Positions 6,558-53,964 of a stretch of 64,000 bases of DNA are shown here, piece after piece. A model generated the notes under the pieces. The model was not told where the DNA came from and searched no databases. It saw nothing but the letters and a program-made list of their open reading frames with translations. The stretch is from Chthoniobacterales bacterium (GTDB lineage: Bacteria > Verrucomicrobiota > Verrucomicrobiia > Chthoniobacterales > UBA10450), in the NCBI GenBank assembly GCA_035630155.1, contig DASQLH010000344.1:2880-66879 (forward strand), written 5' to 3'. Each line of letters opens with the position of its first letter. The first letter of the stretch is position 1. A program made the translations under genes and the position numbers.

Positions 6558-6561
6558 GGGC

Positions 6562-7680: not shown

Positions 7681-7685
7681 GGGGC

Positions 7686-9584
7686 ATGGTCACCATCTCG
7701 CCCGGGACCCGACAGGCTTCGCGGCTTCCCGGGAGGTTAAACGAGTGGCTCGATTCCGGGATCGGCCAGCTCTGCCTTCTAACCGTAATCGCCCTGGTCT
7801 ATTTGGTCGCGTATTGGAACTACGATGCTCTGCCCGGCGCAAGCGCTCAATATCCCCTCGGCTGGTGGGGCTGGTGGGATCAAGGGCAATATTGGAAATG
7901 CGCCGCCGGCCTCGCCCACGGAAACCTGACGGCGGAAACCTTTTGGTATCCGATCGGTTATCCCGTTTTGGGGGCTCTGTTCTACTCAATTACGCCGCAG
8001 CATGCGTTCCTGATCCCAGATTTGTTGCTGGCGCTGGGCATTGCGGCGCTGTTCTATCAAATCGCGAGAAGGTTTATCACGGCGCTCGAGACGGTTCTCC
8101 TGATGGCAGTGTTCGTCGTTTGTTATCACGGGCTTCTGGCTGACACGCTGGTCGTTCCCTGGAATACGCTTCCGACACATCTCTTCTCTTATGCGGTTAT
8201 CCTGCTGGTCGGACTCGGGCCGCCCAGAAAACACCTGGTTCTCATTGCCGCCCTTTGCGTCGGACTAATGTATCTCTGTCGTCCTGGAGATGCGTTCTGT
8301 CTTGCTCTGCTCGTCGGGGTTGCAGTATTCCGCCTCCCCTCCTGGCCTGAGCGGTTTTGGGCCGGCTTTGCATCTGTAACCATCGTTGGGGCGTTCGCGG
8401 CGTTTGTGGTGCTTCTAAATAAGTGGGTCTTCGGCCCGGGGTCGACGCCGTACGAAATGGCGGTCGCCAGTAGTGGCTTTGGCGGCTATCCAATCTGGCA
8501 AAAGGCGTTCTGGCTCCTGGTCGATAATCGCCCCGTCTTTAACGAAGCCGGAGCTACTCTCTTTTCCCACTTTCCTTGGCTTCCCCTGACCCTTCCGGGA
8601 ATCGTTTATCTCTTGCGACATAGATTGGCCGACATCATTGGCTGGTTGTTAAGCATCGGCGCCACCTGCGCCATATATTTCGAGTTCAACGATTTCTGGC
8701 CCAGTAATCTGTTTCGTTATCTCCTGATCCACTATTTGGTCTGGACGCTGCCGCTGTTGTTCCTGATCGCCTATCTCGGCCTCCGCGACGTCGCGCGAAG
8801 CCGATTGGTCCAATTGAGTCTTGGTTTAACGGCGATCCTTGTCTTCGCCCTGTGGCTGTTGACGACCCAGTTGAAGGTTACAGGCCAGCAGGCCGGCGCG
8901 GTCCCAGCGATCGGACAAATCCCCGCCAGTCCGGCGGAACCGGTGGACTGGGTTCTTTTTGAGGGGGTGACCAGCGCGCCGAAACTGCAAAGCGGCTCCC
9001 GGTCTTTAAAGCCGAGATTGGATTATGTGGAGCCCGGCCGGCCCAAGGGAGTTTTTCTTTTGCTCGCCAGAAACGCGCGTCAAGCCACGTTGACCTATGA
9101 CGCTTCCGAGGCCGGCGCTTTAGAAAAGGTGCAGTATGGACGCCTGGAATGGCGGTTTGTGTCGATCCGGCGCGCTCTCTCTCCGTTGTTGCAGAAATAT
9201 TCCCCGCGAAACGCACGAGTGGTTTCAGAAGCGAGAGTTCCAGGAGTTGATGTCGCCGGCCCTGCGGGCGTTCCGGACGGCCAGCCGGACCAGGTTATTG
9301 AGCTCGATCTGGCCCCCGCGACTTTGCGGGACATCAAGGTGTGGGACCTCCAAACGGGCGACGGCCGAGCGCATTGGATCAGCAAACCGAACCCTCAGGG
9401 TTGGTGGCTGATCAAGACAGTTCCCGGGGTCACCACATTGCCCAAGAACCGCGCTGGAATAAGACTTTGCTTTCCCGATTTCGGCCAGCTCGATCAGTCC
9501 GACTCGGCGACTCTGCGCGGCCTGGACGAGGAAGGACGCGTCATCCTGGAGTTGAACATCCGGCCGGCGGACACGAACAACTAG
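7686..9584 (+). CDS. polytopic membrane protein, candidate GT-C-type glycosyltransferase, with a conserved C-terminal extracytoplasmic domain (paralogue A)
   Basis: 632 aa with many hydrophobic spans. It aligns by eye over its whole length with the 16180..18123 product (YPLGWWGWWDQGQYWKCAAGL / YPIGWWGWADQGHYLKCAASL). The C-terminal ~110 aa are shared with two other proteins of the cluster. Confidence 0.7.
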   Translation: MVTISPGTRQASRLPGRLNEWLDSGIGQLCLLTVIALVYLVAYWNYDALPGASAQYPLGWWGWWDQGQYWKCAAGLAHGNLTAETFWYPIGYPVLGALFYSITPQHAFLIPDLLLALGIAALFYQIARRFITALETVLLMAVFVVCYHGLLADTLVVPWNTLPTHLFSYAVILLVGLGPPRKHLVLIAALCVGLMYLCRPGDAFCLALLVGVAVFRLPSWPERFWAGFASVTIVGAFAAFVVLLNKWVFGPGSTPYEMAVASSGFGGYPIWQKAFWLLVDNRPVFNEAGATLFSHFPWLPLTLPGIVYLLRHRLADIIGWLLSIGATCAIYFEFNDFWPSNLFRYLLIHYLVWTLPLLFLIAYLGLRDVARSRLVQLSLGLTAILVFALWLLTTQLKVTGQQAGAVPAIGQIPASPAEPVDWVLFEGVTSAPKLQSGSRSLKPRLDYVEPGRPKGVFLLLARNARQATLTYDASEAGALEKVQYGRLEWRFVSIRRALSPLLQKYSPRNARVVSEARVPGVDVAGPAGVPDGQPDQVIELDLAPATLRDIKVWDLQTGDGRAHWISKPNPQGWWLIKTVPGVTTLPKNRAGIRLCFPDFGQLDQSDSATLRGLDEEGRVILELNIRPADTNN

Positions 9585-11588: not shown

Positions 11589-13631
11589 TCAGTTGGCCGC
11601 CGGACCGAACACGATGCGTTCGACGCGAAACGGCGCCTGGTCTTTCGGGCGTGTTAGAAGCAGGCGAGCCAGGCCGCTTCGATTCCAAGACTCACGCGGG
11701 ATGCGAAAGGTAAGCTTGCTCCCGGTGTCCCCCTGAACGCGGGCCAGCTCCAGACGATTTAGGCGAACGCTCAAAGCAGGCGGCTCCAAGGCGGGCGCTG
11801 AATCATCGGATCTAAACCAGATCGAGCATTCGACGTCGTGTGTTGTTTGAACCCGGCGGAATTGCAAAACGCCCAAATCCTCTGTCATTTGGCCGGCCTT
11901 ATCTTCCGCTAGGTCCCAGCCAGCCACGACGTATTGGGCAGCATTGGCTTCAGGACCGGCAAAGCGGACCTCGGCGCCGGCCGGATCCAGCGTCACGCCG
12001 AAAGTGGAAATGAAAGTGCCCTCATTCAACGTGACTCCACTCAGAGAAGGAGCCGGCGTGGTGAACTTCCACACTGCGAGATCGTCCTCGTTGACGGCCT
12101 CGGCAAGCGGACGGGCATGATCCCGTCCGAACATGAAGGCCCATTCCGGTGTGATCGCATAGTTGTAGCCCAGCCGTTCAAGGGCCAATGCTACACCGAC
12201 AGCCTGGGGCCAATCGCCGTGCGGGAAGACGAGAAACTTTGTGCGTGCGCCATCGGCTTGCGTGGCGCTCGCCAGTCCACTCGACAAAGTGGGGGGGTAG
12301 GAAACCGAGGGCATCTCCGCAGCCAAACGCCAGCCTCGCGTGACGGGAACGAACAGGAGTAGGCCAAGAATTCCCAGGCCGATCGATGCTGTCCGGCTTG
12401 CCTTAACTGGAATGGCATCGCACAACACCGCTGCGACTAAAATCAGGAGGATGAAGATAAGACCGAAGTTGAAAAAACCGTTGAAGTTGAACATCGGTCC
12501 GTTTTGCATTACGCCCCAGCAGACAGTTAGTCCCGTGCTCAGGATAAAGTAAATGCCGAGCCAGGCGGCAAATCGATTCCTTCGAAAGGCCCGCCAGCCA
12601 AATCCAAGCAAACCCAGCGCGATCGCAACCCAAGCGGCGACGAAGTGCCATCGGTCCCTGAGAAACCGTAAGCTGCCACCGGTTATTTGGTCGCAAAACG
12701 TCTCAGGGTTCGCCACGTAAGAAAAGAACGTGGCGAGGTAGATCAAGGAAGCCGGCAGTGTTTTACGATCGCCGGAGTGCCCGGAAAAATGCTGCAGAAT
12801 CAGGTTTAGATTGCTTTGCCGGCCTCTTGTCGCGTCGATAACAAGAGGCACCAAGGCGAGAACGACGATCCCCCCGGAAATTAGGATAGGTCGTTTATGA
12901 AGCCTGATAGCCGCTGCGAAAGAACCGTTGGAGCGACGACTTCGCCCGAGGAGCACCGCGATGGCGAGAAGGAAACAAGGGACGACGAAAAGCGGTTGAG
13001 CGACATGACCATGGACCAGGAAGGACCCGGCCACGGTCGCCGCCACCAGGGCTTTTGCATCTCCTGAGGCCAGCGAGGCGCAGGCGATCAGGAAACAGAG
13101 AAAGGGGAACAACAGAACATGCGGGGCCCATATACTGGTAAACACGCTGTCGCGGATAACTGAATTGACCGTCGCAAAGTGAAGCCCGCCAAAAACGAGC
13201 AGCAGTGGAATCAGGAGCGGATGCGAAACTGTTCGACGAACGATACACAAAGCCCAGGCAAAGAATCCGCATTGAACGATTATCCCCGTTAGGATATGTG
13301 CGTTAAAGGGACTAGGCACGAGTCTTGTCAGGTCGTAGAAGAGCCATTCCCCCGCGGCGTAGGCATAAAAAAACGCAGGCCCCGGATGATGAAATCCCCA
13401 GCGCGAGTAGTTGCCGTAAAGCTCGTGAAAGTACTTGGCGTTACGAATCTGGAGCGCATTCGCGGCGTAGTCACCGGGCTCGGCATGTCCTTCAAGAAAG
13501 AAAAACTTGATATGGCAGAGGACAAGAATAGCCACCAACGCCATCCAAAGCGCCCAGCCGGGCACCGTCGAATCACCTGGCTGCTTTATCTCTTTTGCTG
13601 ACGAGCCACTCTGGTTCATAGGTAGAGACAA
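11589..13631 (-). CDS. large polytopic membrane protein with a C-terminal soluble domain, function unknown (glycan-cluster associated)
   Basis: 680 aa with more than 10 hydrophobic spans. N-terminal loop YSRWGFHHPGPAFFYAYAAGEW. The C-terminal ~200 aa are non-hydrophobic. Sits in the same minus-strand operon as a GT, an SDR and a GT2. Confidence 0.6.
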   Translation of the reverse strand: MSLPMNQSGSSAKEIKQPGDSTVPGWALWMALVAILVLCHIKFFFLEGHAEPGDYAANALQIRNAKYFHELYGNYSRWGFHHPGPAFFYAYAAGEWLFYDLTRLVPSPFNAHILTGIIVQCGFFAWALCIVRRTVSHPLLIPLLLVFGGLHFATVNSVIRDSVFTSIWAPHVLLFPFLCFLIACASLASGDAKALVAATVAGSFLVHGHVAQPLFVVPCFLLAIAVLLGRSRRSNGSFAAAIRLHKRPILISGGIVVLALVPLVIDATRGRQSNLNLILQHFSGHSGDRKTLPASLIYLATFFSYVANPETFCDQITGGSLRFLRDRWHFVAAWVAIALGLLGFGWRAFRRNRFAAWLGIYFILSTGLTVCWGVMQNGPMFNFNGFFNFGLIFILLILVAAVLCDAIPVKASRTASIGLGILGLLLFVPVTRGWRLAAEMPSVSYPPTLSSGLASATQADGARTKFLVFPHGDWPQAVGVALALERLGYNYAITPEWAFMFGRDHARPLAEAVNEDDLAVWKFTTPAPSLSGVTLNEGTFISTFGVTLDPAGAEVRFAGPEANAAQYVVAGWDLAEDKAGQMTEDLGVLQFRRVQTTHDVECSIWFRSDDSAPALEPPALSVRLNRLELARVQGDTGSKLTFRIPRESWNRSGLARLLLTRPKDQAPFRVERIVFGPAAN

Positions 13632-13640
13632 CTGGTCGCG

Positions 13641-16121
13641 TTAAGAACGATCCGGGGCGGTCTCGTCGTCTGTTCTGGCGTTGCCCCTGAGGCGCGCCTC
13701 CAACTCGTCCACACGGTCCTGAAGAAAACCTGTGGATCGTATTGCATCAGGACTTGCTCTCCGGCGACGAATAACCGCCAGACGCTCAGCGATTATCTGG
13801 CCGGCCGCCGCCGGGGAATGCAACGCGCGCACGTCCTCCGCCGCACGCGTGCCGCGCTTTAGCGCCTCGGCTGGGTCTTGATAGACACCCCGCATTAACC
13901 CAGCGGCGGCGTTTACATCAGGGCAGGACCAGTGTGATTCCGACGGATAGGGTTCCCGTTCGAGGCCAACTTTACATCGGCGAAAAGGACATAGGTAGCT
14001 GTTGTTCGCCGTCATGAATTCAAGGTTGCCGGAATAAGCGGTCGCAATCGTCGGTTTTCCCAAAGCCATTGCTTCCGCCATCGTCAAGCCAAAGCCTTCC
14101 GAGCGATGGAGAGACACGTAGCAATCTGAGAGGGCCGTAAGCGTGTTATTCTCTATCTGGGAAAGGTAACCGTCCATCAGTATGATATCGGGGCGTTCGC
14201 GGCTGGCATAGCGGAGCTTCTCCGTCTCGAGGGGTCGCTTGTCACCATTGATTGTTTTGATTACCAGGGCCGGCCCTTCACCGTTTGAAAAGGCTTTCGT
14301 AAAGGCCTCAATCACGCCCAGCGGATTCTTCCTTTCGAGGACGCTAAGAAAATCGAAACTGAAGAGAAAGACAAACTTGTCGGGCAAGTCCAGATCCGCG
14401 CGGGAGAGGGCCGGATCAATCTGCGGGATCAGCACCGGGAGCCGGAACTTGAAGACAGATTTGGGCGATACCTTCAGAAACGTCTCGCGCATGAACTCGC
14501 TCGCGACCCAGACTTCATCCACGTAGTCAAAGGCGACATGGAATTGCTTTGGGAAATCCTCGACTTCCCAAAACCACACGCCAATTGTGTAGCGCCCGTG
14601 CCTGAGCTCAGGTCCGGTCTGTTCCGCAAAATTAAGAAACTGATCGGGATTCACGCACACGATGTTTAGATCTGCGTCGCGAAGCTCGGCGCCGCGGCCG
14701 ACGAAGGGATAACTTTGGCGACTGGCGGTGGCGCCAAAGGGGATGGTGTTAAATGGGATGCCGGCGGCTTCCAAGCCTGTAAGGAGGGCACGCGCCGCAA
14801 CGCCGATCCCCAATTCGGCGCGAAAATAGCCGGCCACGTTCACCGGCGCGGCGGAAATTAAAGCGGATACGTCTCCGCTGGTTTCGGCCCCCGGCCGAAC
14901 ATCAAGGGGTAAGAGGACCGAGGGCAAGTCTAACTCGCGATGGCCATAACGGAGGTACCAATCACGGAAGTCGCCCGCGTCCGCCCCGCCTGGATCGGGA
15001 AAGGCCTTCTTCACATCTTTTCGCTCGTTATAGACCGCGAGCATATACCGCGTAACCACAGGTGAGGCTTTCCCGACTGGTTCGTTCAACCAATTCAAGA
15101 ACCCTTCTTCTCCTTCAGGACCAAAAGGGCTTGGCGGCTCTTTTGCCGATCCCCCTTTGTACATCCCATACGCCTCCCGATAGAGACGCAACATGCGTTG
15201 ATCGATGCGAAGACCGCTCGGGAGATAATCGAAGGGATAGGCGTGGTCGCCGAACTTGCCGTATCCAGCTTCCATGACCTTATCGCGATATTCGTCGCAT
15301 AATTTCGCGATCACGGGCCACTCGCTTAACAGAATCCGCGGCTCCAGACCCTGATGTTTGCTCAACAAATGCGGCTTGTCCGGATCATAGCCGCGAAAGT
15401 CAAAAGACCGCAGTGGCTCTCCCTCCACTTCGTAATGTTCTCCCGTCCAGGCAACCGTCTCCGGCTCCAGGCTCCAGCAACCAACCGCGAATCCAGGGAT
15501 CGTTAATACCCGATGAGGAATGGAATTGAACCAGTGCTCCCCTGCCTGACCTGAGTCGGTGCTTCTAACGTCACCGCTGGGATTTTGCTTCCGCGAGCTC
15601 TCGAACCACGAACGCAATCTCTTTTCCGCGCCACGCCGAGCTGCGATGAACCCTGGACCTAAATCGGCACCGAGCGCACTCCGCACTGTTTCCGTGGCAG
15701 TGAGCGCCTCGTTGGCGTGGATCACTTCCGAGATGTCGGACAACGAATCGTACACCTCTGTCGTTACTTCGAAATATGCCGCGGCCGTTGCACCAGAGTT
15801 CAGCACACTCCGAAGCAGCGCCGGCATGAGGAGGGCGACCAGCTGTTGTCCACTGTAGATCATCGGCAGACGCCACTCGTCGCCGGCCTCGAGGCCGAGG
15901 TCCGCCATGGATAACACGCGTGTTCCCGCCGGAAAAATTTCTGGTTCCGCCCCCTTATCGAGAATTAGGACGACGAATTCGCCTTCCGGATGGAACTTCA
16001 GGAAGGATCTCGCCAAAACGATCGCTTGCGGTATTTCGGTCGAAACGGCTATCGTGCATCCGGTTAGTGAATACAAAATGCGCGGCATGGCAGTGGGGGG
16101 CGCGGCTTGGATGTTATCCAT
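13641..16121 (-). CDS. large glycosyltransferase: C-terminal GT4/GT-B module with an uncharacterised N-terminal half
   Basis: 826 aa. The C-terminal region has SEGFGLTMAEAMALGKPTIATAYSGNLEFM (EX7E signature). I could not assign the N-terminal ~450 aa. Confidence 0.75.
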   Translation of the reverse strand: MDNIQAAPPTAMPRILYSLTGCTIAVSTEIPQAIVLARSFLKFHPEGEFVVLILDKGAEPEIFPAGTRVLSMADLGLEAGDEWRLPMIYSGQQLVALLMPALLRSVLNSGATAAAYFEVTTEVYDSLSDISEVIHANEALTATETVRSALGADLGPGFIAARRGAEKRLRSWFESSRKQNPSGDVRSTDSGQAGEHWFNSIPHRVLTIPGFAVGCWSLEPETVAWTGEHYEVEGEPLRSFDFRGYDPDKPHLLSKHQGLEPRILLSEWPVIAKLCDEYRDKVMEAGYGKFGDHAYPFDYLPSGLRIDQRMLRLYREAYGMYKGGSAKEPPSPFGPEGEEGFLNWLNEPVGKASPVVTRYMLAVYNERKDVKKAFPDPGGADAGDFRDWYLRYGHRELDLPSVLLPLDVRPGAETSGDVSALISAAPVNVAGYFRAELGIGVAARALLTGLEAAGIPFNTIPFGATASRQSYPFVGRGAELRDADLNIVCVNPDQFLNFAEQTGPELRHGRYTIGVWFWEVEDFPKQFHVAFDYVDEVWVASEFMRETFLKVSPKSVFKFRLPVLIPQIDPALSRADLDLPDKFVFLFSFDFLSVLERKNPLGVIEAFTKAFSNGEGPALVIKTINGDKRPLETEKLRYASRERPDIILMDGYLSQIENNTLTALSDCYVSLHRSEGFGLTMAEAMALGKPTIATAYSGNLEFMTANNSYLCPFRRCKVGLEREPYPSESHWSCPDVNAAAGLMRGVYQDPAEALKRGTRAAEDVRALHSPAAAGQIIAERLAVIRRRRASPDAIRSTGFLQDRVDELEARLRGNARTDDETAPDRS

Positions 16122-16179
16122 CAGACCCAGAATTAGCCACTAACCCGCACTCCCGTCATGTCGATTTTAGAGCGAAGAA

Positions 16180-18123
16180 ATGTTTTCGAAACTAGAGAAT
16201 GCTGATTCAACGAGACTAGCGCACTTGTCGCATCTCGCCAATCGGTGGCTGGAGTCTTGGGTGGGGCGGCTTTGCCTCCTTGGTGCCGTGGCCCTACTCT
16301 ACCTTTGCGCGTACCAGCAGTGTGGCTACCGTCCAGGCGCTTATTATCCGATCGGATGGTGGGGTTGGGCGGACCAGGGCCATTATTTGAAATGCGCTGC
16401 TAGCCTGGCTCAGGGGAGTCTTACGCCCGATTCTTATGTCTACGCTTTCGGGTACCCGGCTTTGGGCGCCTTGTTTTATAACTGGATGCCAAACCACGCG
16501 TTCCTGATTCCGAACCTGATCCTGGTCGTGGGTATTGCCGCTCTATTCTTTGAAATTGCCAGGCGGCTAATCACGCCTTTCGAGACGGTGTTATTAATGG
16601 CCGCATTCACCTTTTTTTATAGCGGTTTATTATCCGATATGCTGGTAGTGCCATGGAATACTATTCCGACCCACTTTCTGGCTTACGCGATGATCCTTTT
16701 GGTTGCCTTGGAACCGGTAACGAGAAAACGGCTGCTTCTCTCAGCTTTATGTGTTGGCCTTCTCTATTTGTGTCGTCAAGCAGACGCCTTTTGCATGGGG
16801 CTTTTGATTGGAATCGGTCTCTTACGCCTTCCCTCGTGGTCCGACAGAATTCGAACGGGTCTTTATTGTCTGGCCATCGTCTGTTTTTTTTGGGGATTTG
16901 TTTTGCTGGTTAATCAGGTGGTATTCGCTTCCTGGACTACGCGTTATGAGAAAATCGTTAATGGCATGGGGTTTGGGGGTTACCCAGTTTTGCGGAAGTG
17001 GTTCTGGTTTATTGTCGATAGTAGCGCAGTTTTCAACGAGCCCGGATCGACGCTGTCCTCGCGTTTCCCATGGTTTCCAGTTTTTCACGAACCCGGCACA
17101 GCGCTGTTCTCGCATCTCCCCTGGCTGCCATTGGTTATCCCTGGCGCCGTATGTTTTATACGCCGCCACTCTCTCGGCGCCTTGGGTGTGTTTTTCAGCA
17201 TCGGCGCTACGTACGTGCTTTATTTTCAGTTCAATGATTTCTGGCCTCATAACTTATTTCGCTTCCTCCTCGTTCATTATCTCTTCTGGACTTTTCCGCT
17301 CCTGGCCTTGTTCGCCTATCTAGGGGTCAAGGAGGCGTGGAAATTTGCGGCGGGCCGCTGGAGCTTCGGGATAGCACTAATGCTTAGCCTGGGGCTGTGG
17401 TTATTGACGATACGAGAGGAAGTCGCTGGCAAACTCCCAGGGCCTCCCCCTGCCGTGGGCGAGCTTACCGCTAACATCGCTCAACCGGTGGACTGGATTC
17501 TTTTCCGTGGCCTTGAAACTCCGCCAAAGCTAGCGAACGGGCACCGCGAACTCGTCCCGGTTTCCGATTTCGTCGTGCCGCTTCATTTCGAAGGCGTGTT
17601 AGTTGTTCTTTCAAAAGGGGCAAGAATTGAGTCGGTCAAATTCGACACCACGGGAATGCCGGGCTTAACCGCCATTGAATATGGCCGTTTCATTTGGCGT
17701 TTCCAATCGATCGGAAAGGCTGTTCGGACAGCGATTGATCGCTTTCGCGGAGCGCGCATTGTATCGTTAGTCAAGCTCCCAGAGATTGATGTGGCCGGTC
17801 CCACCGGGGGGCCGGATGGTCAACCGGATGAAGTGATAGAACTCGAGCTTCCAAAATCGACCTTACACAGGGTCACCGTATGGGACTTGGTATCAGACCA
17901 GGGTTCAGCACATTGGATTAGTGCTCCTCAATCACACGGCTGGTGGCCCATCAAAGCGTTGCCCTCCACGCGAACGCTACCGGAAGGGCAAAGCGGCGTT
18001 CGCCTCTGCTTCCCAAATTTTGGTAACCTCCAAGCCGCGCGCTCGGCGCGTCTCCGGGGTCTTGACGACTTTGGTCGAATCCATCTTCAAGTCATAATTC
18101 ACCCAAACAAACCCGTTCCGTAA
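16180..18123 (+). CDS. polytopic membrane protein, candidate GT-C-type glycosyltransferase, with a conserved C-terminal domain (paralogue B)
   Basis: 647 aa, collinear with the 7686..9584 product. Contains an extra 17-aa tandem duplication (FNEPGSTLSSRFPWFPV / FHEPGTALFSHLPWLPL). Carries the same C-terminal domain. Confidence 0.7.
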   Translation: MFSKLENADSTRLAHLSHLANRWLESWVGRLCLLGAVALLYLCAYQQCGYRPGAYYPIGWWGWADQGHYLKCAASLAQGSLTPDSYVYAFGYPALGALFYNWMPNHAFLIPNLILVVGIAALFFEIARRLITPFETVLLMAAFTFFYSGLLSDMLVVPWNTIPTHFLAYAMILLVALEPVTRKRLLLSALCVGLLYLCRQADAFCMGLLIGIGLLRLPSWSDRIRTGLYCLAIVCFFWGFVLLVNQVVFASWTTRYEKIVNGMGFGGYPVLRKWFWFIVDSSAVFNEPGSTLSSRFPWFPVFHEPGTALFSHLPWLPLVIPGAVCFIRRHSLGALGVFFSIGATYVLYFQFNDFWPHNLFRFLLVHYLFWTFPLLALFAYLGVKEAWKFAAGRWSFGIALMLSLGLWLLTIREEVAGKLPGPPPAVGELTANIAQPVDWILFRGLETPPKLANGHRELVPVSDFVVPLHFEGVLVVLSKGARIESVKFDTTGMPGLTAIEYGRFIWRFQSIGKAVRTAIDRFRGARIVSLVKLPEIDVAGPTGGPDGQPDEVIELELPKSTLHRVTVWDLVSDQGSAHWISAPQSHGWWPIKALPSTRTLPEGQSGVRLCFPNFGNLQAARSARLRGLDDFGRIHLQVIIHPNKPVP

Positions 18124-45569: not shown

Positions 45570-48500
45570 ATGAATCCTTACCTTCGCGGACGTATCGTCG
45601 TTATCTTTCTGGCCATTGCCTTGTGTCTGCTACCGCATTTTGCCACCACGGCCAATGCGCAAGCCGGTTCAACCGATCGCCTCTGGCAAGGCGTCGATCG
45701 AATCCCGGCCGCGCCAGCTAATGCGCGCGCCGGAATAAGGCCGACGACATTCAAAACGTTCACTTTGGATGCGGCCATGCTCCAATCCGCGCTGGCCCAG
45801 GCGCCTCGGGAGTTCACGGCCCGGCCGCCTCAGGACACCGGACTCGAAATCACTCTGCCGCGGCCAGACGGAAGCCTGGCGCGCTTTAAGATCGAAGAAG
45901 TGGCCTTGATGGAACCAGGCCTGGCGGCCAAGTTTCCCGGGTTCAAGACGTATCGCGGGCGCGGCCTCGACGACCCGATGGCTTCTCTCCATCTGGATGT
46001 GAACCCCTGGACGTTTCACGCGCAAGTGCTCTCACCCTCTGGGATTTACTACGTCGATCCTTATTGGAAGCATGACGGCAGCGTCTACATGAGCTACGCC
46101 AAGAGCGATCTGACTGCCGCGGGAAGGGAGTTCAAGTGCCTTTTCGAGAACGAGATTGCTCAAAAATCGCAGCTAGCCGCAACTGCGCCCGCTGCTCCGA
46201 CTGGGGTGAACAATGTGATCTCTGGCAAAAACTTGCGGACCTATCGGCTGGCCTGCGCTACCTCAATTATGTACAGCCGCTACCACGGTGGAGACCCCAC
46301 CCCCGACGTGGCGAAGGTCCTGGCTGCGCTGGTGACCATGAACAATCGCGTCTCGGGCGTGTATGAGACCGAGTTAGGAATCCGGATGGTTTTGGTTGCC
46401 AACCAGGACCAGATCATCGCGAGCGCCACCAACCCGACACCTTACACCGATACCCCCGGAGACATTGGTTCGAATCCCGCCTATCTCGATCAAAAGATCG
46501 GACCGGACAATTATGACATTGGTCACGTGGTCACGACCGGCAGTGGCGGCATTGCCGGTCTGGGCGTGGTCTGCCGTGGATTTAACCCTGCGTCTGGCGG
46601 CAGTGCCAAAGCGCGTGGAACGACCGGTATCGATCCCCCTGAAGGCGATGGGTTCTGGATCGATTTCGTGGCGCATGAGATGGGTCACCAGTTCGGCGGC
46701 AATCATACTTTTGATGGCACCGGCACCAATTGCGGGACGAACCAGAACGAATCGACCGCCTATGAGGTGGGCAGTGGTAATACCATACAGGCTTATGCGG
46801 GAATTTGCGGAAACCAAAATCTCCAGTCCCACAGCGACGCCTATTTTCACTTTGCCAGCTTGGAAGAGATGTTTGGGTTTGCCGCTGGCGGCGTTGCGGC
46901 GTCCGTCCCTGCCATTACTCTCGCCAGAGCTGTATCTGCTCCGCAGCCCGCCGGGCCGGATGCCAATCCAGGCTCCGGAACATTGGACCCGACACCCGGC
47001 GCAACTCTTTCCTGGACTGGCACCGCAGCGGGCGGGACCGCACCGGATGAAGCTTCCTGTATCGAAGGCGTGAATTGCGACACCTTCGTCCTCACTCTCT
47101 CGGGAGCGCCAGGGGATTGGCGCGAGAAGACGGCGCGCATCACCTTTACCTGGCCAAATGCGGTCGATGATTACGATATCTATGTCCACAAGGGCGCGCC
47201 TGATGGAGAGATCGTGGACGACGCGGCCACGGGCGATCAGCCCGAGGTCATCAACCTGGATCCAGAAAACACCAGCGTAGGGACGGGCGTCTTTTATGTG
47301 CATGTCGTCTATTTTGCAGTTGTGCCGCCGGCTCAGCAGTACACCGCCGTCGCCACGGTGATCGATCAATCGAATCCCGGAACCGCGCCCACCTGTGCCG
47401 TGGTCACCGCCACCGGGAACAATCCGCCCAACGTCGATGCCGGAGCGGACTACAAGATCCCGGCACGCACTCCATTTGCCCTGACCGCCAACGGAAGTGA
47501 TCCGGATGGCAACCCGATCACCTATTGCTGGGAAGAAGCCGACCTCGGCCCCGCCCCGAAGGACGCAAATACACCGGACGACGGACAGAATCCGATCTTC
47601 CGCTCATTTCCACCGACGCTGAACCCGACGCGCATCTTTCCGCAGCTGCAGTACGTCCTCAACAATGCCAACAACCCACCCGTGAATTACCCGTGTCCAG
47701 AAGAAAGCGTGCCCTGTGTCACGGGAGAAATGCTACCCACCACTTCGCGCGCCTTGAACTTCAAGGTCACTGCGCGCGACAACATATTCGGCGGGCACAG
47801 CATCGATGCCATGAAGATTGATGTGATCGACAGTGGCGCGGGCTTCGCGGTTACGTCTCCGAATACTGCCGTCTCAATCCCGGGCGGCAGCATTCAAACG
47901 GTGACGTGGGACATCGCGAACAGCACCATTCCGGAGATCAACACCACGCACGTGAACATCGCCCTTACGACTGACGGCGGGAACACCTACGTCCCGCTCG
48001 CCACGAATGTGCCTAACGATGGCAGCGAGTCAGTGGTCGTTCCGAATGTGAACTCGAGCACCGCTCGGATCAAAGTGGAAGCTGTCGGCAATATCTTCTT
48101 CGACATCTCGAATGAGAATTTCACTATCGTCAGTACCATTCCGCCTCAGGCGCAGCTGCTTAATATTTCGAGCCGCTCGCGCGTGCAGACAGGCGATAAC
48201 GTGTTGATCGGCGGCTTCATTGTCACCGGCACCGACCCCAAGCAGGTGATGCTGCGCGCGATTGGCCCCTCGATGAAAGTCGGCGCCACACCGGTCACAG
48301 GCCGCATGGAGGACCCGGTGCTTGAGTTGCGCAATAGCGCCAACGCGCTCGTCACCAGTAATGACAACTGGAAGGATTCGCCGGAGCGAACGCAAATCGA
48401 AGGAAGCGGCATCGCCCCGACCGACGACCGGGAATCCGCGATCCTGCGCACCCTGGTCCCAGGCAACTACACCGTGGTTCTGCGAGGGACGAACAACACC

Positions 48501-48944
48501 ACCGGCATCGCGCTGGTGGAAGTGTACGACATGGGTTTGCCAGCTAATTCCATCCTGGCGAATATCAGTTCGCGCAGCTTCATTGAAACTGGGGATAACG
48601 TTCTCATTGGCGGCTTTATCGCCGGCATCACCTCCGGCAATAATCCGATCGGCACCGCGATTCTGGTGCGCGCGCTTGGCCCCTCGCTCAAGAGCCAGCT
48701 CCCGAACGCCATCGATGATCCGACCCTTGAACTGCGCGATTCAAACGGCACCACGCTCGCGAACAACGACAACTGGAGAGATTCGCCTGAGCGGACGCAA
48801 ATCGAAGCGACTGGCATCGCGCCGAGTAACGACCTTGAATCTGCGATCCTCCGCACAGTTACGCCAGCCCCCTACACGGCAATCGTCCGGGGCAAGAACG
48901 GCGGCATCGGTGTCGGCGTCGTGGAGGTCTATAATATCCGGTAG
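45570..48944 (+). CDS. large secreted zinc metalloprotease (metzincin, reprolysin-like) with two C-terminal ~125-aa repeat modules
   Basis: Signal peptide IVVIFLAIALCLLPHFATTANA. The zinc motif is HEMGHQFGGNH (HExxHxxGxxH). The C-terminal tail (about 48150-48941) is two tandem modules (NISSRS..TGDNVLIGGFI...NDNW.DSPER.QIE..GIAP..D.ESAI). Confidence 0.85.
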   Translation: MNPYLRGRIVVIFLAIALCLLPHFATTANAQAGSTDRLWQGVDRIPAAPANARAGIRPTTFKTFTLDAAMLQSALAQAPREFTARPPQDTGLEITLPRPDGSLARFKIEEVALMEPGLAAKFPGFKTYRGRGLDDPMASLHLDVNPWTFHAQVLSPSGIYYVDPYWKHDGSVYMSYAKSDLTAAGREFKCLFENEIAQKSQLAATAPAAPTGVNNVISGKNLRTYRLACATSIMYSRYHGGDPTPDVAKVLAALVTMNNRVSGVYETELGIRMVLVANQDQIIASATNPTPYTDTPGDIGSNPAYLDQKIGPDNYDIGHVVTTGSGGIAGLGVVCRGFNPASGGSAKARGTTGIDPPEGDGFWIDFVAHEMGHQFGGNHTFDGTGTNCGTNQNESTAYEVGSGNTIQAYAGICGNQNLQSHSDAYFHFASLEEMFGFAAGGVAASVPAITLARAVSAPQPAGPDANPGSGTLDPTPGATLSWTGTAAGGTAPDEASCIEGVNCDTFVLTLSGAPGDWREKTARITFTWPNAVDDYDIYVHKGAPDGEIVDDAATGDQPEVINLDPENTSVGTGVFYVHVVYFAVVPPAQQYTAVATVIDQSNPGTAPTCAVVTATGNNPPNVDAGADYKIPARTPFALTANGSDPDGNPITYCWEEADLGPAPKDANTPDDGQNPIFRSFPPTLNPTRIFPQLQYVLNNANNPPVNYPCPEESVPCVTGEMLPTTSRALNFKVTARDNIFGGHSIDAMKIDVIDSGAGFAVTSPNTAVSIPGGSIQTVTWDIANSTIPEINTTHVNIALTTDGGNTYVPLATNVPNDGSESVVVPNVNSSTARIKVEAVGNIFFDISNENFTIVSTIPPQAQLLNISSRSRVQTGDNVLIGGFIVTGTDPKQVMLRAIGPSMKVGATPVTGRMEDPVLELRNSANALVTSNDNWKDSPERTQIEGSGIAPTDDRESAILRTLVPGNYTVVLRGTNNTTGIALVEVYDMGLPANSILANISSRSFIETGDNVLIGGFIAGITSGNNPIGTAILVRALGPSLKSQLPNAIDDPTLELRDSNGTTLANNDNWRDSPERTQIEATGIAPSNDLESAILRTVTPAPYTAIVRGKNGGIGVGVVEVYNIR
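48150..48941 (+). repeat. left arm of a ~0.8 kb inverted repeat (protease tail-coding segment)
   Basis: Encodes the same two-module tail as 51529-52300 on the opposite strand. Even the antisense spurious ORFs (48146..48466 and 52001..52375) translate to similar peptides, so the similarity is at nucleotide level. Confidence 0.8.
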
Positions 48945-49044
48945 GGAAACGGCAAGCGATGAAAGGAGCACGCCCTCGCGCTGGGGAGTGACCAGTGATG
49001 CGCAAACCACGCTAGGAAACTGGCGCACTCCCGACTCCGTGAGA

Positions 49045-49125
49045 CCCTCACCCAGCCCTCTCCCTCAGGGAGAGGGAGTTCCTTCTCCCTTTGGGAGAAG
49101 GTTAGGATGAGGGCCGATTTCGGCC
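49045..49125. repeat. nested palindromic element between convergent genes (possible bidirectional terminator or REP-like element)
   Basis: Hairpin 1 is CCCTCTCCC-tca-GGGAGAGGG (49056-49076). Hairpin 2 is CCTTCTCCC-ttt-GGGAGAAGG (49081-49101). Both are enclosed by CCCTCACCC (49045-49053) and GGATGAGGG (49105-49113). A third small hairpin, GGCCGA..TCGGCC, lies at 49112-49125. No U-tracts. Confidence 0.6.
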
Positions 49126-49126
49126 A

Positions 49127-50518
49127 CTAGACGCCTGGCATCGCCTTCTTCAACGGTTTGAGCAAAACCAGCAGCACGATCGCCATGAACAGCGCTGCGC
49201 CGCTTAAGGTCAGCCAGAAGGTCGAGTGCAGCCAATCGTCCCAGAGCTCGCCGATCTGGGTGAGCTTGTTGCCGATGGCCGTGGCCACGAACCAGCCTCC
49301 CATCATCACTCCACGAAACCGGATCGGCGCGACCTTGGAGACGAGCGACAAACCCATCGGCGACAGCATTAATTCGCCGAGCGTCAGCACGCCATACGCT
49401 CCGACGAGCCACGCCGGCGAGACTTTGAAAGCATAAGGGTCGCTGCCGGTTACCGTCGCTTCTCCCACGCGGGCGGCGATGAAAAGGATGAAGAACGAAA
49501 GGCCGGTCAGCATCATCCCGAATGCCATCTTCGTGGGCGTGGAAGGCTCGAGTCCTTTGCGGTCGAGCCAGCGCCAGAATGCGACCAGCGGGAAGGTTAA
49601 GACAATGACCCAACCGGCGTTGAGCGCGAGAGAGATGATGCCGGAAGCTTTCCAATCCGTGTTGTCATTCGCCCAATAAGTCAGGGTTGAGCCGTTTTGG
49701 TGGAAGACCATCCAGAAAACAATCACGATGAGAAACACGACAATTAGCGCGCCGATCCGTTTCCATTCCGGGACAGCATCCATCGTATCCTGACGGCTGG
49801 CATTCAGCTCGGCTTGCCGGCTCACCGCAGTCGGCGCCGCATCGACCGTGACCGCGGCGCTGTCGGCTGTTTCATCCGCGCTCACCTGTCCGGGGCGATC
49901 GGTCCCCACGATGTGGCGCTTAAACTTCCACAAGATGAAGACCGATATGGCCATCCCGCCGGCCGCCACGGCGAAGGCGGGATGATAACCCCAATTGCGC
50001 TGCACGATTTCGGCCGTCACCGGGGCGAGAAACGCGCCCACGTTAATGCCCATGTAAAAGATGTTGTAAGCGCGATCCTTGAGGTGGCTTCCTTCGCTAT
50101 AAAGATTGCCGACCATCGCCGACACGTTCGGCTTGAAGAAACCGTTGCCGATCACCAGACAGGTCAGCGCGAGGTAAACGACCGGGATCGAGCGAATGGA
50201 AAGGAGGAGGTGACCCGCCATAAAGAACAGGCCGCCGATCATTACCGCCTTCCGATAACCAAGCTTCCGATCCGCGAGCCAGCCTCCAATCAACGGGCTG
50301 GCGTAAACGAACATCAGATAATTGGCGTAAAGCGCGGTGGCGCTGTCCACGGACCAGGCAAATCCCTGCCCGGTCGTGTCGCGCAGGTAGAGCGTGAACA
50401 TCGCCAGCATCGAGTAGAAGCTGAAGCGCTCCCACATCTCCGTTGCGAAAAGCACGTAGAGCCCCTTCGGATGTTTTTCCTCATGAGGCGGCGCGCCGGT
50501 GATTGCGGTCGTGGTCAT
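49127..50518 (-). CDS. POT/PTR2-family di/tripeptide:proton symporter
   Basis: The family signature is ATEMWERFSFYSMLAMFTLYL (ExxERFxYY). 463 aa, about 12-14 TM spans. Confidence 0.9.
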   Translation of the reverse strand: MTTTAITGAPPHEEKHPKGLYVLFATEMWERFSFYSMLAMFTLYLRDTTGQGFAWSVDSATALYANYLMFVYASPLIGGWLADRKLGYRKAVMIGGLFFMAGHLLLSIRSIPVVYLALTCLVIGNGFFKPNVSAMVGNLYSEGSHLKDRAYNIFYMGINVGAFLAPVTAEIVQRNWGYHPAFAVAAGGMAISVFILWKFKRHIVGTDRPGQVSADETADSAAVTVDAAPTAVSRQAELNASRQDTMDAVPEWKRIGALIVVFLIVIVFWMVFHQNGSTLTYWANDNTDWKASGIISLALNAGWVIVLTFPLVAFWRWLDRKGLEPSTPTKMAFGMMLTGLSFFILFIAARVGEATVTGSDPYAFKVSPAWLVGAYGVLTLGELMLSPMGLSLVSKVAPIRFRGVMMGGWFVATAIGNKLTQIGELWDDWLHSTFWLTLSGAALFMAIVLLVLLKPLKKAMPGV

Positions 50519-50574
50519 ACGCTGGTTGTCCCTCTCTCAGAGGTTTAGCATTCCTGACGGGAACTAAAAGAGTT

Positions 50575-51354
50575 TCACTCGGAAAAATCGCGCGCGGGAT
50601 CCTGGCGGAAGAACTGGCTCACCGCGGCATAGAGCTCCGGATGCCGTTCGCGCAAGGCGCGCGGCAGCTCGAAGAAAGCTTCGGTGACAACGGCGAAGAA
50701 TTCCGCCGGGTTGGTCGCGCCATAGATATCGAGCACGGTCGGCGAGCCCGCGTCCGCGGCGGCGCGCAACGCTTCGAATTCCTTCTTCATCACCCGCGCC
50801 CAGGCAAGGTAATCGCTTCGGGTGGCCAGGGGAGGCGCGCCATCGGTGCCGTAATCTTCAAAATCGAGCTGATGAGCGAATTCGTGCAGGACGAGGTTTT
50901 CGCCATCCGAAGGATCGAGGCCGCCCTGCTTGGCGGCGTCCCAGGCGAGCACCAGAGAGCGCATGTGGCGTTCCGTATGCCCCAGCAGGTCTTCGCCGCC
51001 CTCTTCCCAAACATCGCCGCCGACATAACGATCGCCGGGCACGGTGTAACCGGACGGGTAAACCAAGATCGAAGTGAGCTGAGGGTAGTAGTCCGTTTTG
51101 CGATGAAGCAGGAGGAGACACGCCTGTGCGGCGATGGTAACGCGAATCTCATCGGTGAGCTCGAGGCCTCCGCAGCCCTCAAAGTTCTTTTCCGCCAGGA
51201 ACACCTGAACGTGACCGAGGAGCTCGGTCCGATCTTCTGGCGGAAGTTTGCCAAAGATCGGAACATTGCGCGCCAGGATCGAGTGCCACGCGGACGGGAT
51301 CAGCCGGGCCCGTAGTCGTTCTCGGCGACGCTCTTTCGGAAAGCGGAAAATCAC
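50575..51354 (-). CDS. zinc-dependent peptidase, MtfA-like (M90 family)
   Basis: NLVLHEFAHQLD zinc motif, the overall length, and the N-terminal RRERLRARLIPSAW... pattern typical of MtfA-like proteins. Confidence 0.75.
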   Translation of the reverse strand: MIFRFPKERRRERLRARLIPSAWHSILARNVPIFGKLPPEDRTELLGHVQVFLAEKNFEGCGGLELTDEIRVTIAAQACLLLLHRKTDYYPQLTSILVYPSGYTVPGDRYVGGDVWEEGGEDLLGHTERHMRSLVLAWDAAKQGGLDPSDGENLVLHEFAHQLDFEDYGTDGAPPLATRSDYLAWARVMKKEFEALRAAADAGSPTVLDIYGATNPAEFFAVVTEAFFELPRALRERHPELYAAVSQFFRQDPARDFSE

Positions 51355-51393
51355 GCTGGATAGTAGGGCTTAACACTGCCCCAATCATGTCTT

Positions 51394-51517
51394 CTGTAGC
51401 CGGTTCGCTATGCGAAGCGCGGGAACGACGCTCGCAGCTCAAGCCCGCGCTGCCCACCCGCCTTCGCTTCGCTTCGGCGTGGCAAACAGGGCAGCGGCTA
51501 CAGAAGAGAGGCTACAG
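51394..51517. repeat. intergenic palindromic repeat, copy B (long form)
   Basis: CTGTAGCCGGTTCGCTATGCGAAGCGCGGGAAC at 51394-51426 is near-identical to copy A. GCGGCTACAG lies at 51494-51503, with a second GGCTACAG at 51510-51517. Confidence 0.7.
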
Positions 51518-51525
51518 CAAAGCGC

Positions 51526-53964
51526 CTACCGGATATTATAAATTTCCACCACGCCGACGCCGTTGTTCTTGCCGCGGACGATCGCGGTGTATTGGCCCGG
51601 AGCCACGACACGGTAGATGGCCGACTCGAGGTCGTTAGTCGGTGCAACGCCGGTGGCTTCGATTTGCGCGCGTTCCGGCGAATCCTTCCAGTTGTCGTTG
51701 CTCGTAATCGCGGCGCCGTTGGCGTCACGCAACTCGAGAAGCGGGTCGTCGATCGCGTTCGGCAACTGGCTCTTGAGCGATGGGCCGAGCGCGCGCACGA
51801 GGATCGCGGTGTTGGCCGGATGATGGCCCGCAATGAAACCGCCGATCAGGACGTTGTCGCCGGTTTCGATAAAGCTGCGCGAGCTGATGTTGGCCAGGAG
51901 GGAATTAACCGACAACCCGAGATCGTAGAGTTCGACGAGCGCGATGCCGGTGGTGTTATCTTTTCCTTTCACGATCGCGGTGTAGGCGCCGGGCGCGAGG
52001 TTGCGCAGGATCGCTGATTCGTTGTCGTGGCTCGGGGCGATGCCGGTCGCTTCGATTTGGGTGCGCTCCGGCGAATCCTTCCAGTTGTCGTTGCTGGTCA
52101 CGAGCGCGCCACTGCTGTTGCGCAATTCGAGCACCGGATCCTGCATGCGGCCGGTAACCGGGTTGCCGCCGACGTTCATGGATGGACCCATCGCGCGCAG
52201 CAGCACTTGCTTCGGATCTGTGCCGGTAACAATGAAGCCGCCGATCAAAACGTTGTCCGCTGTCTGGACATGGGCGCGGCTCGAAATATTGAGCAATTGC
52301 GCCGGCACCGGGACGGGAGTCGTCCCAATGGCCAGGTTGACCGCCGCCAACGCGTCGATGCGGCCCCAGCCGTAGGTGTTGTTCGGCACCTGCGTGGCGC
52401 TGTCCCCGCCACAAGCTTCCGTCGTGGCCTTCTTTTCGGCGCTTTGCTCGATGATCTCTTCAATGCGATCGACATTGCCGGCCAGTGCCGGGTTCGCGGA
52501 GATGACTAGCGCGACCAATCCCGCCACGTGCGGACCCGCCATGCTGGTGCCGCTGAGGCTGCCATACTCGGTATCGCTTCCGCGCAATGCGGAACGGATG
52601 CTGGAGCCGGGCGCACTGATATTCGGCTTCAAATAAAATGGCTCGGCCGGATTTTCCGGATCGATCGCCGCTGGACCGCGGCTGCTGAAGCTCGAGGCCA
52701 AATCGGTCGTGTGCGTTGTCGACCCCACCGTGAACGCCTCGGGGTAGCGCGCCAGCGGATGAAAGATGGTATTGCATTCCGGGCCGTCGTTCCCGGCAGA
52801 CGCGACATAAACAATGCCCGCGGCCCGGCTTGCTTTGAGTGAATCGCGGAGCGGATTTGCCTCGGGCGGACAACCCTCGAGGCAGCCCCAGGAATTGTTG
52901 ATCACATGCGGCGCTTTGCTGGGGTCAGGGTCCGCGCCGTTCACTTTAGTGGGCGCGAGGAAGAATTGCATGCACTCCAGGTAAGTGGGGACGTTGCCGA
53001 CGCCGTTGCTCATGTTGCGGCAGGCCATCCATTTGGCTTCAGGGGCCATGCCGATCTGGTTGCCGGCGCCGTCGTCACCCGCCATCGAGCCGACCGTATG
53101 CGAGCCGTGGCCGCCGCCCAAAATCTCATCGTCGTCACACGGCAAAGGCGAGGGCTGGCCCGCGCCGAGGACGCCGCCGGGATTACAGGCGTTCAACGGT
53201 TCGGGCGGCCAATTCGGAATGTGGATCGCGTCGTGCCAGTTGTAATCGTGGGTCGAAGTCTCGGGCGTGCCGCCCCAGCCGCGATACTGGTTCCGGAGCG
53301 CATTATGCGTGAACCGCACGCCGGTGTCCGCCCCAGCCACGATCACGCCTTGCCCGCGGTAGCCCATGGCCCAAACTTCGGGAGCTTTTACCTTGGCCAG
53401 GCCCGGCTCAGCAGCCGTAACCGCATTGGGTGAGGAAGGACCTTGGCTGCCGTCAGCCGCGGAAGCGGAAGTCTGTTGCGGCGGAAGTTTCACCCCGCCT
53501 TTGCCGACCGGATGAATGGCGGCGACTTCGGGAAGTGCGGCCACGGCTTGGACAACCGCAAGGCTGCCCTTGGCCCAAAGCGTATTCGAGATCCAGAAGG
53601 ATTGGAACGGCGCGCCGAGCTGAGTCAGCGTCTGCTTCACGTTTGCCTGCGTCGCTTGCGCCGTGCTGGTCAATTGTTGATAAACGTATTGACCCTTCTC
53701 CTCCTTAGTTGTGAGCGCGCTCGAGCCGCTCAGGTCGGCCTGCTGCTTCATATAAATAAGGAATTCGGTCTCGGCCAGACCCGCGGCGCTCAAGACATTG
53801 GCATCCACTTTCGTTTGCCAGGATGACGCGTTGACCGCGTTGGCATTCGACGGCGGCGCCGCGAAACCAAAATAGACCATGAGCGTGGCTGCGAAAAAGA
53901 AGGCGCACCCCGTAATCGCGCGGAGATTGAAAAAGCCGGATTCCGAGACCGTTTTCGTTTGCAT
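51526..53964 (-). CDS. secreted S8-family subtilisin-like serine protease with the same two-module C-terminal tail
   Basis: The ATG at 53964 gives MQTKTVSESGFFNLRAITGCAFFFAATLMVYFG (signal). The catalytic triad contexts are VAGADTGV (D), GGGHGSHTVGS (H) and LSGTSMAGPHVAG (S). The tail is about 80% identical by hand alignment to that of the 45570 product. Confidence 0.88.
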   Translation of the reverse strand: MQTKTVSESGFFNLRAITGCAFFFAATLMVYFGFAAPPSNANAVNASSWQTKVDANVLSAAGLAETEFLIYMKQQADLSGSSALTTKEEKGQYVYQQLTSTAQATQANVKQTLTQLGAPFQSFWISNTLWAKGSLAVVQAVAALPEVAAIHPVGKGGVKLPPQQTSASAADGSQGPSSPNAVTAAEPGLAKVKAPEVWAMGYRGQGVIVAGADTGVRFTHNALRNQYRGWGGTPETSTHDYNWHDAIHIPNWPPEPLNACNPGGVLGAGQPSPLPCDDDEILGGGHGSHTVGSMAGDDGAGNQIGMAPEAKWMACRNMSNGVGNVPTYLECMQFFLAPTKVNGADPDPSKAPHVINNSWGCLEGCPPEANPLRDSLKASRAAGIVYVASAGNDGPECNTIFHPLARYPEAFTVGSTTHTTDLASSFSSRGPAAIDPENPAEPFYLKPNISAPGSSIRSALRGSDTEYGSLSGTSMAGPHVAGLVALVISANPALAGNVDRIEEIIEQSAEKKATTEACGGDSATQVPNNTYGWGRIDALAAVNLAIGTTPVPVPAQLLNISSRAHVQTADNVLIGGFIVTGTDPKQVLLRAMGPSMNVGGNPVTGRMQDPVLELRNSSGALVTSNDNWKDSPERTQIEATGIAPSHDNESAILRNLAPGAYTAIVKGKDNTTGIALVELYDLGLSVNSLLANISSRSFIETGDNVLIGGFIAGHHPANTAILVRALGPSLKSQLPNAIDDPLLELRDANGAAITSNDNWKDSPERAQIEATGVAPTNDLESAIYRVVAPGQYTAIVRGKNNGVGVVEIYNIR
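51529..52300 (-). repeat. right arm of the ~0.8 kb inverted repeat (protease tail-coding segment)
   Basis: See the left arm at 48150-48941. Confidence 0.8.

Follow-up and report, generated by a model that had tools for sequence, protein, structure and literature searches.

Compact modules at the C-terminus of secreted proteins are known from several systems. The PPC domain (PF04151; structure 5sv5), a beta-jelly-roll of ~100-130 residues, forms the C-terminal end of secreted peptidases and, in its classical form, is often cleaved off once the enzyme has been secreted. The secreted clostridial metalloproteases ColG and ColH end in collagen-binding domains (CBDs; 5iku, 1nqj, 2o8o, 3jqw), in ColG as the tandem s3a-s3b; these domains, with a Ca2+-binding linker and a specificity for collagen, act as a non-covalent binding handle. 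The subtilases Tk-SP (3afg, 9ues) and KP-43 (1wmd) carry a single domain of that fold behind the S8 catalytic domain, where it stabilizes its own protease. In some lineages many exported proteins that are otherwise unrelated have a C-terminal module in common, as with the strictly C-terminal type IX domain (TIGR04183) and the PEP-CTERM tag of exosortase substrates, which combines a PEP motif, a transmembrane helix and a basic tail. The only curated sequence model with recurrent matches to the tail described below, NF038127 ('DVUA0089 family protein', FDP_fam), takes its name from a functionally uncharacterized Desulfovibrio protein that is co-regulated with exopolysaccharide and biofilm genes (PMC4641369). 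Here we describe a two-module tail shared by two predicted secreted proteases, one of family M12B and one of family S8, whose genes lie in a 64,000-nucleotide (nt) stretch of DNA from a Chthoniobacterales bacterium (GCA_035630155.1, contig DASQLH010000344.1, positions 2,880-66,879 of the forward strand; hereafter the window, to which unlabelled coordinates refer). The reading we favor, with a probability of about 0.62, is that this is an old, vertically kept and generic exoprotein tail of binding type, whose two copies in the window have neither detectably exchanged sequence nor served to invert the DNA between them.

The tail departs from each of these systems. Its modules in the window genome fall below the Pfam threshold for PPC and are 10-13% identical to PPC; they always occur as an ordered pair, mostly on non-protease cargo, and number ~140 per genome. 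No sequence similarity to the ColG/ColH domains is detectable. In Tk-SP and KP-43 the domain is single and serves its own protease, whereas here a pair is common to dozens of unrelated proteins. Matches to NF038127 are partial and sub-cut-off. Compared with the type IX domain, the tail is twice as long, duplicated and also found in N-terminal or internal positions, and unlike PEP-CTERM proteins its carriers end in a beta-strand (EVYNIR-stop) with no terminal hydrophobic or transmembrane helix.

Both window proteases have signal-peptide-like starts by a crude test. The predicted M12B (reprolysin-like) zinc metalloprotease gene (45570-48944, + strand) encodes 1124 amino acids (aa), with a metzincin catalytic domain at aa 223-425 (46236-46844; PF13583) that matched Pfam Reprolysin_4/2/3/5 at E 3.5e-27 and a translated zinc motif HEMGHQFGGNH. 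The S8 subtilase gene (51526-53964, - strand) encodes 812 aa from the ATG at 53964, a start that fits the 808-829 aa of its homologues, and its catalytic domain (aa 204-534; 52363-53355, - strand; PF00082, E 1.5e-37) contains the D/H/S motifs GADTGV, HGSHTVG and SGTSMAGPH. Each protein closes with two modules of ~125-133 aa and a stop at E-V/I-Y-N-I-R. As delimited by module alignment and a profile hidden Markov model (HMM), these are module 1 (aa 861-993; 48150-48548; HMM E 5e-74) and module 2 (aa 994-1124; 48549-48941; ending EVYNIR-stop) of the M12B protein on the + strand, and module 1 (aa 555-687; 51904-52302) and module 2 (aa 688-812; 51529-51903; ending EIYNIR-stop) of the S8 protein on the - strand. 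Modules 1 and 2 of one protein share 55-59% of their residues. Codon-aligned between the two proteases, module 1 was 78% identical in aa and 80% in nt, with a synonymous divergence (dS) of 0.72 and a nonsynonymous divergence (dN) of 0.13; the corresponding values for module 2 were 82%, 77%, 1.14 and 0.12. A preliminary description of this DNA had reported a common two-module tail encoded by a ~0.8 kb inverted repeat and, from a hand alignment, 102 identities in 129 positions of module 1; module alignment and repeat search both agreed with the former, and the codon alignment (~104/133) with the latter.

The repeat search resolved the inverted arms, which together span 48136-48945 and 51525-52316, into three aligned stretches: 48136-48626/51826-52316 (491 nt, 79% identical), 48611-48913/51551-51853 (303 nt, 75%) and 48905-48945/51525-51565 (41 nt, 85%). 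Overall nt identity was 78.4%, against an expectation of 67.8 ± 1.2% from the protein alignment with random codon choice, and the fraction of identical residues encoded by the same codon was 0.61, against 0.36 for random choice and ~0.45 for distant tails of the same genome. Because the DNA is more alike than the protein alone would predict, the arms are homologous as DNA, in line with the DNA-level similarity noted in the preliminary description, though far from near-identical; judged by these sequences, they are homologous stretches short of full saturation and not recent copies. That description had gone further and read the likeness as a sign that a portable tail was recently duplicated or converted between catalytic scaffolds. 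Three observations lean that way: the excess of identity and same-codon use just given, the rank of this pair (~14th in similarity among the 2346 tail pairs of the genome), and the finding that in 8/8 orthologue comparisons between the window and the related loci L001, L003, L030 and L031 a gene's tail had a lower dS than its catalytic part (for example, 0.31 vs 0.60 and 0.74 vs 1.22). The lower tail dS may stem from constraint on codons or from sporadic exchange with further copies of the tail. The dS values of 0.72 and 1.14 nevertheless speak against a recent event, as does the longest word identical between the arms, which is 26 nt, and 90-nt sliding windows gave identities of 0.70-0.86 with no high-identity, conversion-like tract. 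True recent duplicates in this genome look different: in the tail-gene array on contig C208 the tails reach 97-99% aa identity. Those C208 tails nonetheless differ in ~15-19% of the codons at identical residues.

A maximum-likelihood tree of 55 tails, including homologues of both proteases from public data, sorted the tails by host gene and not by genome. The 15 closest M12B tails, from different genomes, formed one clade (support 99/96), S8 tails grouped with S8 tails, and each of the two window tails was sister to the tail of the same protease from another genome. Copies within a genome were thus not closer to each other than to their orthologues, which is what concerted evolution would have produced. 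In 5/5 genomes with both genes the dS between M12B and S8 tails was 0.81-1.08, while orthologous tails of different genomes were separated by a dS of 0.31-0.98, and the copies were under purifying selection (dN/dS ~0.1-0.2). Since the tails follow their host genes and the arms are equally diverged in five genomes, the M12B and S8 genes appear to have received the same tail subtype before the compared species diverged, each copy having since evolved with its own gene. Recent duplication or ongoing conversion as the cause of the likeness is therefore largely refuted, and we regard it as very improbable. The preliminary description had also suggested that the arms might invert the intervening 2.6 kb, which holds a peptide transporter and a peptidase gene. 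Geometry alone favors this, in that a crossover in the colinear inverted tails would keep both protease genes whole. The arms, however, are 20-23% diverged and, over the two long stretches, 75-79% identical, with no exact match beyond 26 nt; none of the four genes has a recombinase Pfam match; the intervening genes stand in one orientation, never inverted, in all three genomes that carry them (window, L003 and L030); and the M12B and S8 tails separate in the tree. An invertible segment is accordingly extremely unlikely.

To place the modules structurally, we ran AlphaFold2 on paralogue alignments and compared the models with the PDB by Foldseek. Each module was predicted as a jelly-roll of nine strands with a short helix, with a predicted local distance difference test (pLDDT) score of 94.2 for the pair and 92.2 for the single module (92-94 for the M12B modules). 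For the pair, the top matches were the N-terminal domain of the DeCLIC channel, which has two lobes (E 5e-6), and 5iku, the s3a-s3b tandem of ColG (E 8.9e-6). The single module matched the C-terminal jelly roll of the subtilase Tk-SP (3afg) with a template modelling (TM) score of 0.60, the PPC domain 5sv5 with a TM of 0.57 by query and 0.68 by target (E 5.9e-4), the ColG/ColH CBDs at 0.54-0.59 (ColG, 0.54 over 128 columns) and the subtilase KP-43 at 0.45; all the single-module matches listed had a probability of 1.00 and 8-13% sequence identity. Sequence searches were far less informative. The window modules had no relevant Pfam match even at E<=10 (one chance-level match, E 0.22), and the PF04151 gathering threshold of 25.9 bits was reached by 0/51 modules, two of which matched at E 0.025. 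NF038127 matched 29/51 modules (best E 1.5e-6), covering only positions ~45-112 of the 150 in the model, and stayed below its cut-off of 29 bits for the S8 protein (28.8, at module 1), the M12B tail (21.8) and M12B module 1 (19). Against PDB sequences, the tail profile gave only spurious summed matches to designed Kelch propellers and the single-module profile nothing; canonical PPC was not found in the window genome or in 20 relatives. On the predicted models, the modules belong to the PPC / collagen-binding-domain fold, as a diverged branch for which no curated model exists, so that the likeness to PPC- and collagenase-type beta-sandwiches noted earlier proved right at the level of fold. Of the two findings that were to count against the preliminary description, DNA identity no higher than the protein predicts was not seen, while the other, membership of the tail in a widespread, portable domain family of binding or anchoring type, was.

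The two window proteases are only a small sample of the carriers. A profile HMM built from the four window modules and run on the 4.3 Mb draft genome detected 164 modules in 83 open reading frames (ORFs), 69 of which carried the ordered pair 0-2 residues from the stop with the end motif E-[VIA]-Y-x-[LIV]-x-stop; a signal-peptide-like ATG start was present in 51/63 complete tail ORFs by the same crude test. Besides paralogues of both window proteases, the cargo in this genome comprised GSDH dehydrogenase, M10 matrixin, CAP, GDSL lipase, BNR/sialidase-like, phosphoesterase, ice-binding-like, CBM96 and beta-propeller proteins, to which homologues elsewhere added He_PIG, Calx-beta, cupredoxin, FG-GAP, NHL, Kelch, PKD, beta-helix and metallophosphatase domains. 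Only ~9/69 tail proteins looked like proteases by motif or homology, and with ~70 proteins of the genome bearing the tail, the idea of a special link between these two proteases finds no support; the C-terminal position on secreted peptidases that is typical of PPC applies to both of them, but most carriers are not peptidases. Tail genes often stood in same-strand arrays, as on contigs C208 (7 genes), C295 (4), C215 (3) and C261 (3).

When 1.84 billion public cluster representatives were searched with a profile, 19,291 matched at E<=1e-3 and 15,825 at the stricter E<=1e-10. All 18 sampled genomes of the genus carried modules (43 to >139 each), while among other families of the order modules occurred in only 2/12, and in a 200-genome sample of the phylum the only positives were the window's own family and one other, f17 (6/15). 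Two close homologues had source names pointing to metagenome-assembled genomes of Chthoniobacterales and Verrucomicrobiaceae. A literature search yielded no paper on the module, only the listing of the DVUA0089 regulon. As far as these searches can tell, the tail represents a very large family that has no Pfam model and is highly expanded in this probable Chthoniobacterales genus. S8 homologues in other genera of the order (47-48% identical; e.g., L033 G241:C48 and L034 G249:C7, 599 aa) lacked the tandem tail and ended in a different module of ~65 residues (..Y-R-L-E..W..F-Y-R-V/L...P-stop) that has no Pfam match; a crude regular expression found none of these in the window genome.

The position and copy number of the modules bear on what the pair might do. 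In 257 public members the pair was C-terminal in 243, just past the signal peptide in 8 and internal in 6, and the number of modules was 2 (185 members), 3 (10), 4 (59) or 6 (3), that is, mostly even. Four ORFs of the window genome consist of a signal peptide, the pair and then other domains, which in one of them are Kelch-like repeats, and where the pair is N-terminal or internal, the end motif runs on into a linker. Because the clades of module 1 and module 2 are largely separate (127/138 modules correctly split), the duplication is ancestral and the pair moves as a block. Stand-alone proteins (C226) consist of a signal peptide and the pair only, and the conserved polar motifs NISTR, NDNW and ESA recur on unrelated cargo. 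A portable unit of binding type, as opposed to an obligatory C-terminal signal, is the interpretation favored by these data.

The S8 protein also has a conserved N-terminus. From 53964 to ~53836 (- strand) it bears the motif MQTKTVSESGFFNLR, followed by a hydrophobic segment. In generalized form the motif reads M-x-K-x3-S-E-S-G-F-F-N-L-R, with a hydrophobic segment of ~20 residues and then FAAPP behind it, and it was kept in 22/28 listed S8 homologues; SESGFFNLR-type motifs were also present in several other large tail proteins of the same genome, encoded by ORFs on C157, C261, C295 and C323. A genome-wide regular expression for the motif gave eight matches, seven of which were tail proteins. 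The position of its G-F recalls prepilin signals, but residue +5 is R and not E.

Two genes lie between the proteases in the window, in the interval 48945-51525. The POT/PTR2 proton-dependent oligopeptide transporter gene (49127-50518, - strand, 463 aa) was identified by PF00854 (E 9.4e-53), and the M90 (MtfA-like) zinc peptidase gene (50575-51354, - strand, 259 aa) by PF06167 (E 6.6e-83) and a translated HEFAHQLD motif; no signal peptide was seen when the N-terminus of the latter was read by eye. M90 lies upstream of POT with an intergenic gap of 56 nt, and the S8, M90 and POT genes are all on one strand. ORF map and Pfam thus bear out the earlier report of two unrelated secreted proteases converging on a POT importer and an MtfA-like peptidase. 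Synteny was read from metagenome contigs; the species representatives of the genus hold only M12B homologues that are 36-49% identical. A conserved frame was evident, consisting of gpsA, a purN-like gene, a CTP-transferase-like gene, the diacylglycerol (DAG) kinase gene and M12B (+) on one side and S8 (-), a CitMHS/TrkA_C transporter gene and a cupredoxin-like gene on the other. What stood between M12B and S8 varied among five related loci with conserved flanks. In L003 and L030 it was POT (-) and M90 (-) in the orientation of the window, so that two related genomes share with the window, without change, the M12B-POT-M90-S8 order and hence the proposed grouping of secreted proteases with an importer and an M90 peptidase. 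In L001 the slot (13526-17560 of that locus) held a 1344-aa M4 protease that itself bears the tail, in L029 (12565-16299) a long + strand gene running off the contig, probably of the same M4 type, and in L031 (10591-11022) a non-coding interval of 432 nt in which BLAST detected nothing of the POT-M90 cassette. No homologue of the M4 catalytic domain was found in the window's draft genome. The preliminary description had spoken of an island, a term that does not survive: GC content was flat across the region and the flanking housekeeping genes were syntenic, so that the locus belongs to the core chromosome and contains one slot of variable content. Another M12B homologue (L032) had different neighboring genes, and in L030 an RHS/YD-shell repeat gene and two small ORFs (6064-8190) were inserted between the DAG kinase and M12B genes.

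How the tail might act can be weighed against two other explanations of its distribution. Identical polar motifs on unrelated cargo, stand-alone pairs, tolerance of position and the folds of binding domains together suggest a common partner for all carriers, and on balance we lean towards a tail that tethers many exoproteins non-covalently to a polymer of the cell surface or matrix. A collagen-specific role is unlikely given the broad range of cargo. If the pair were instead a sorting signal for a dedicated, type IX-like machinery of outer-membrane export or attachment, whose pathway the SESGFFNLR-type motif might share, its place at the extreme C-terminus in 243/257 public members and in 69/~75 proteins here, the conserved last strand, the ~70 diverse cargo proteins per genome, the lineage-restricted and patchy distribution and the overlap with the N-terminal motif (7/8 matches) would all be accounted for. 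Such a signal would not readily explain pairs that are N-terminal or internal with other domains after them, and the nearest folds are ligand-binding or stabilizing domains and not known secretion tags; moreover, no candidate machinery was found, and the ORF maps of the C208, C295, C215 and C261 arrays, whose neighboring ORFs are unannotated, revealed no obvious shared partner gene. We therefore consider a sorting signal unlikely. TIGR04183 had no match in the genome, a negative that is weak alone since the control search was also empty, and PF07589 had none either, with an uninformative control; two exosortase genes are present elsewhere in the genome.

The other explanation, that the pair is an intramolecular folding, stabilizing or pro-domain that is removed or acts on its own cargo and has no common external ligand, has its models in the Ca2+-dependent C-terminal jelly roll of Tk-SP and in classical PPC domains. 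It draws on the Tk-SP, KP-43 and PPC domains among the best single-module structural matches and on the fact that both window proteins are proteases. It is at odds with the small share of proteases among the carriers, with the recurrence of NISTR, NDNW and ESA across unrelated cargo, a sign of a common partner, and with the existence of proteins made up of a signal peptide and the pair, and we hold it to be just as doubtful as the sorting signal. Slightly more speculative is the proposal that the tail and the SESGFFNLR-type motif jointly mark the substrates of a dedicated export-and-retention pathway in Chthoniobacterales and Pedosphaera-like Verrucomicrobiota; if true, the pathway would parallel type IX C-terminal-domain or PEP-CTERM sorting in a form particular to that lineage and serve ~2% of the proteome.

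Under the tethering model that we prefer, cargo would be exported via Sec and then cross the outer membrane, possibly by a type II secretin route, for which the three secretins in the genome are candidates. The tail would then bind a shared ligand non-covalently, most plausibly a polymer of the cell surface or matrix, and so hold scavenging enzymes and their products near the cell. At this locus, peptides released by the proteases would be taken up through POT and then trimmed in the cytoplasm by the M90 peptidase, a chain that is coherent, kept in two relatives and optional in others. Several points weigh against the reading as a whole. Tethering is suggested by fold and architecture only, and removal of the tail after secretion, by analogy with PPC domains, would argue against lasting attachment. 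In ~95% of members the pair closes the protein with a conserved last strand, which would also suit a sorting signal. The synonymous similarity of the arms exceeds the family baseline (0.61 vs 0.45), which leaves room for very old or short conversion events. Finally, the POT-M90 cassette is absent from three of the five related loci with conserved flanks (L001, L029 and L031), and hence a functional unit of four genes would at most be optional.

With these results the claims of recent tail exchange between catalytic scaffolds and of an invertible segment fall, and the convergent protease pair is seen to frame a slot that differs among close relatives, being filled by a peptide importer and peptidase, by another protease or by nothing. 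Much of the exoproteome of these uncultured bacteria, which form an abundant soil lineage, bears the tail, and a curated model for so large a domain family would improve the annotation of soil metagenomes; knowledge of its ligand would show how such oligotrophs keep secreted hydrolases and their products close. Beyond the tests that rejected conversion and inversion, the present analysis adds the variable slot, the N-terminal motif, a genome-wide codon baseline for tail pairs and the S8 homologues with another end module.

Some smaller features of the region were also recorded. Between its catalytic domain and tail, the M12B protein contains a segment (aa 466-599; 46965-47366) that also opens large tail proteins on C323 and C261, and a second one (aa 609-855; 47394-48134) common to the M12B paralogue on C323 and the M12B homologues of the genus. 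A scan for terminator-like structures placed a GC-rich hairpin at 49056-49078, where the M12B and POT genes converge with 182 nt between their stop codons, and an 84-nt stretch that includes it was 95% identical in L003. Between the M90 start and the S8 stop lies a palindromic dispersed repeat of 118 nt (51390-51507) with 12-nt terminal inverted repeats (TCTTCTGTAGCC...GGCTACAGAAGA); BLAST returned 50 hit lines for it across the draft genome, and in appearance the element resembles a repetitive extragenic palindrome (REP) or a miniature inverted-repeat transposable element (MITE).

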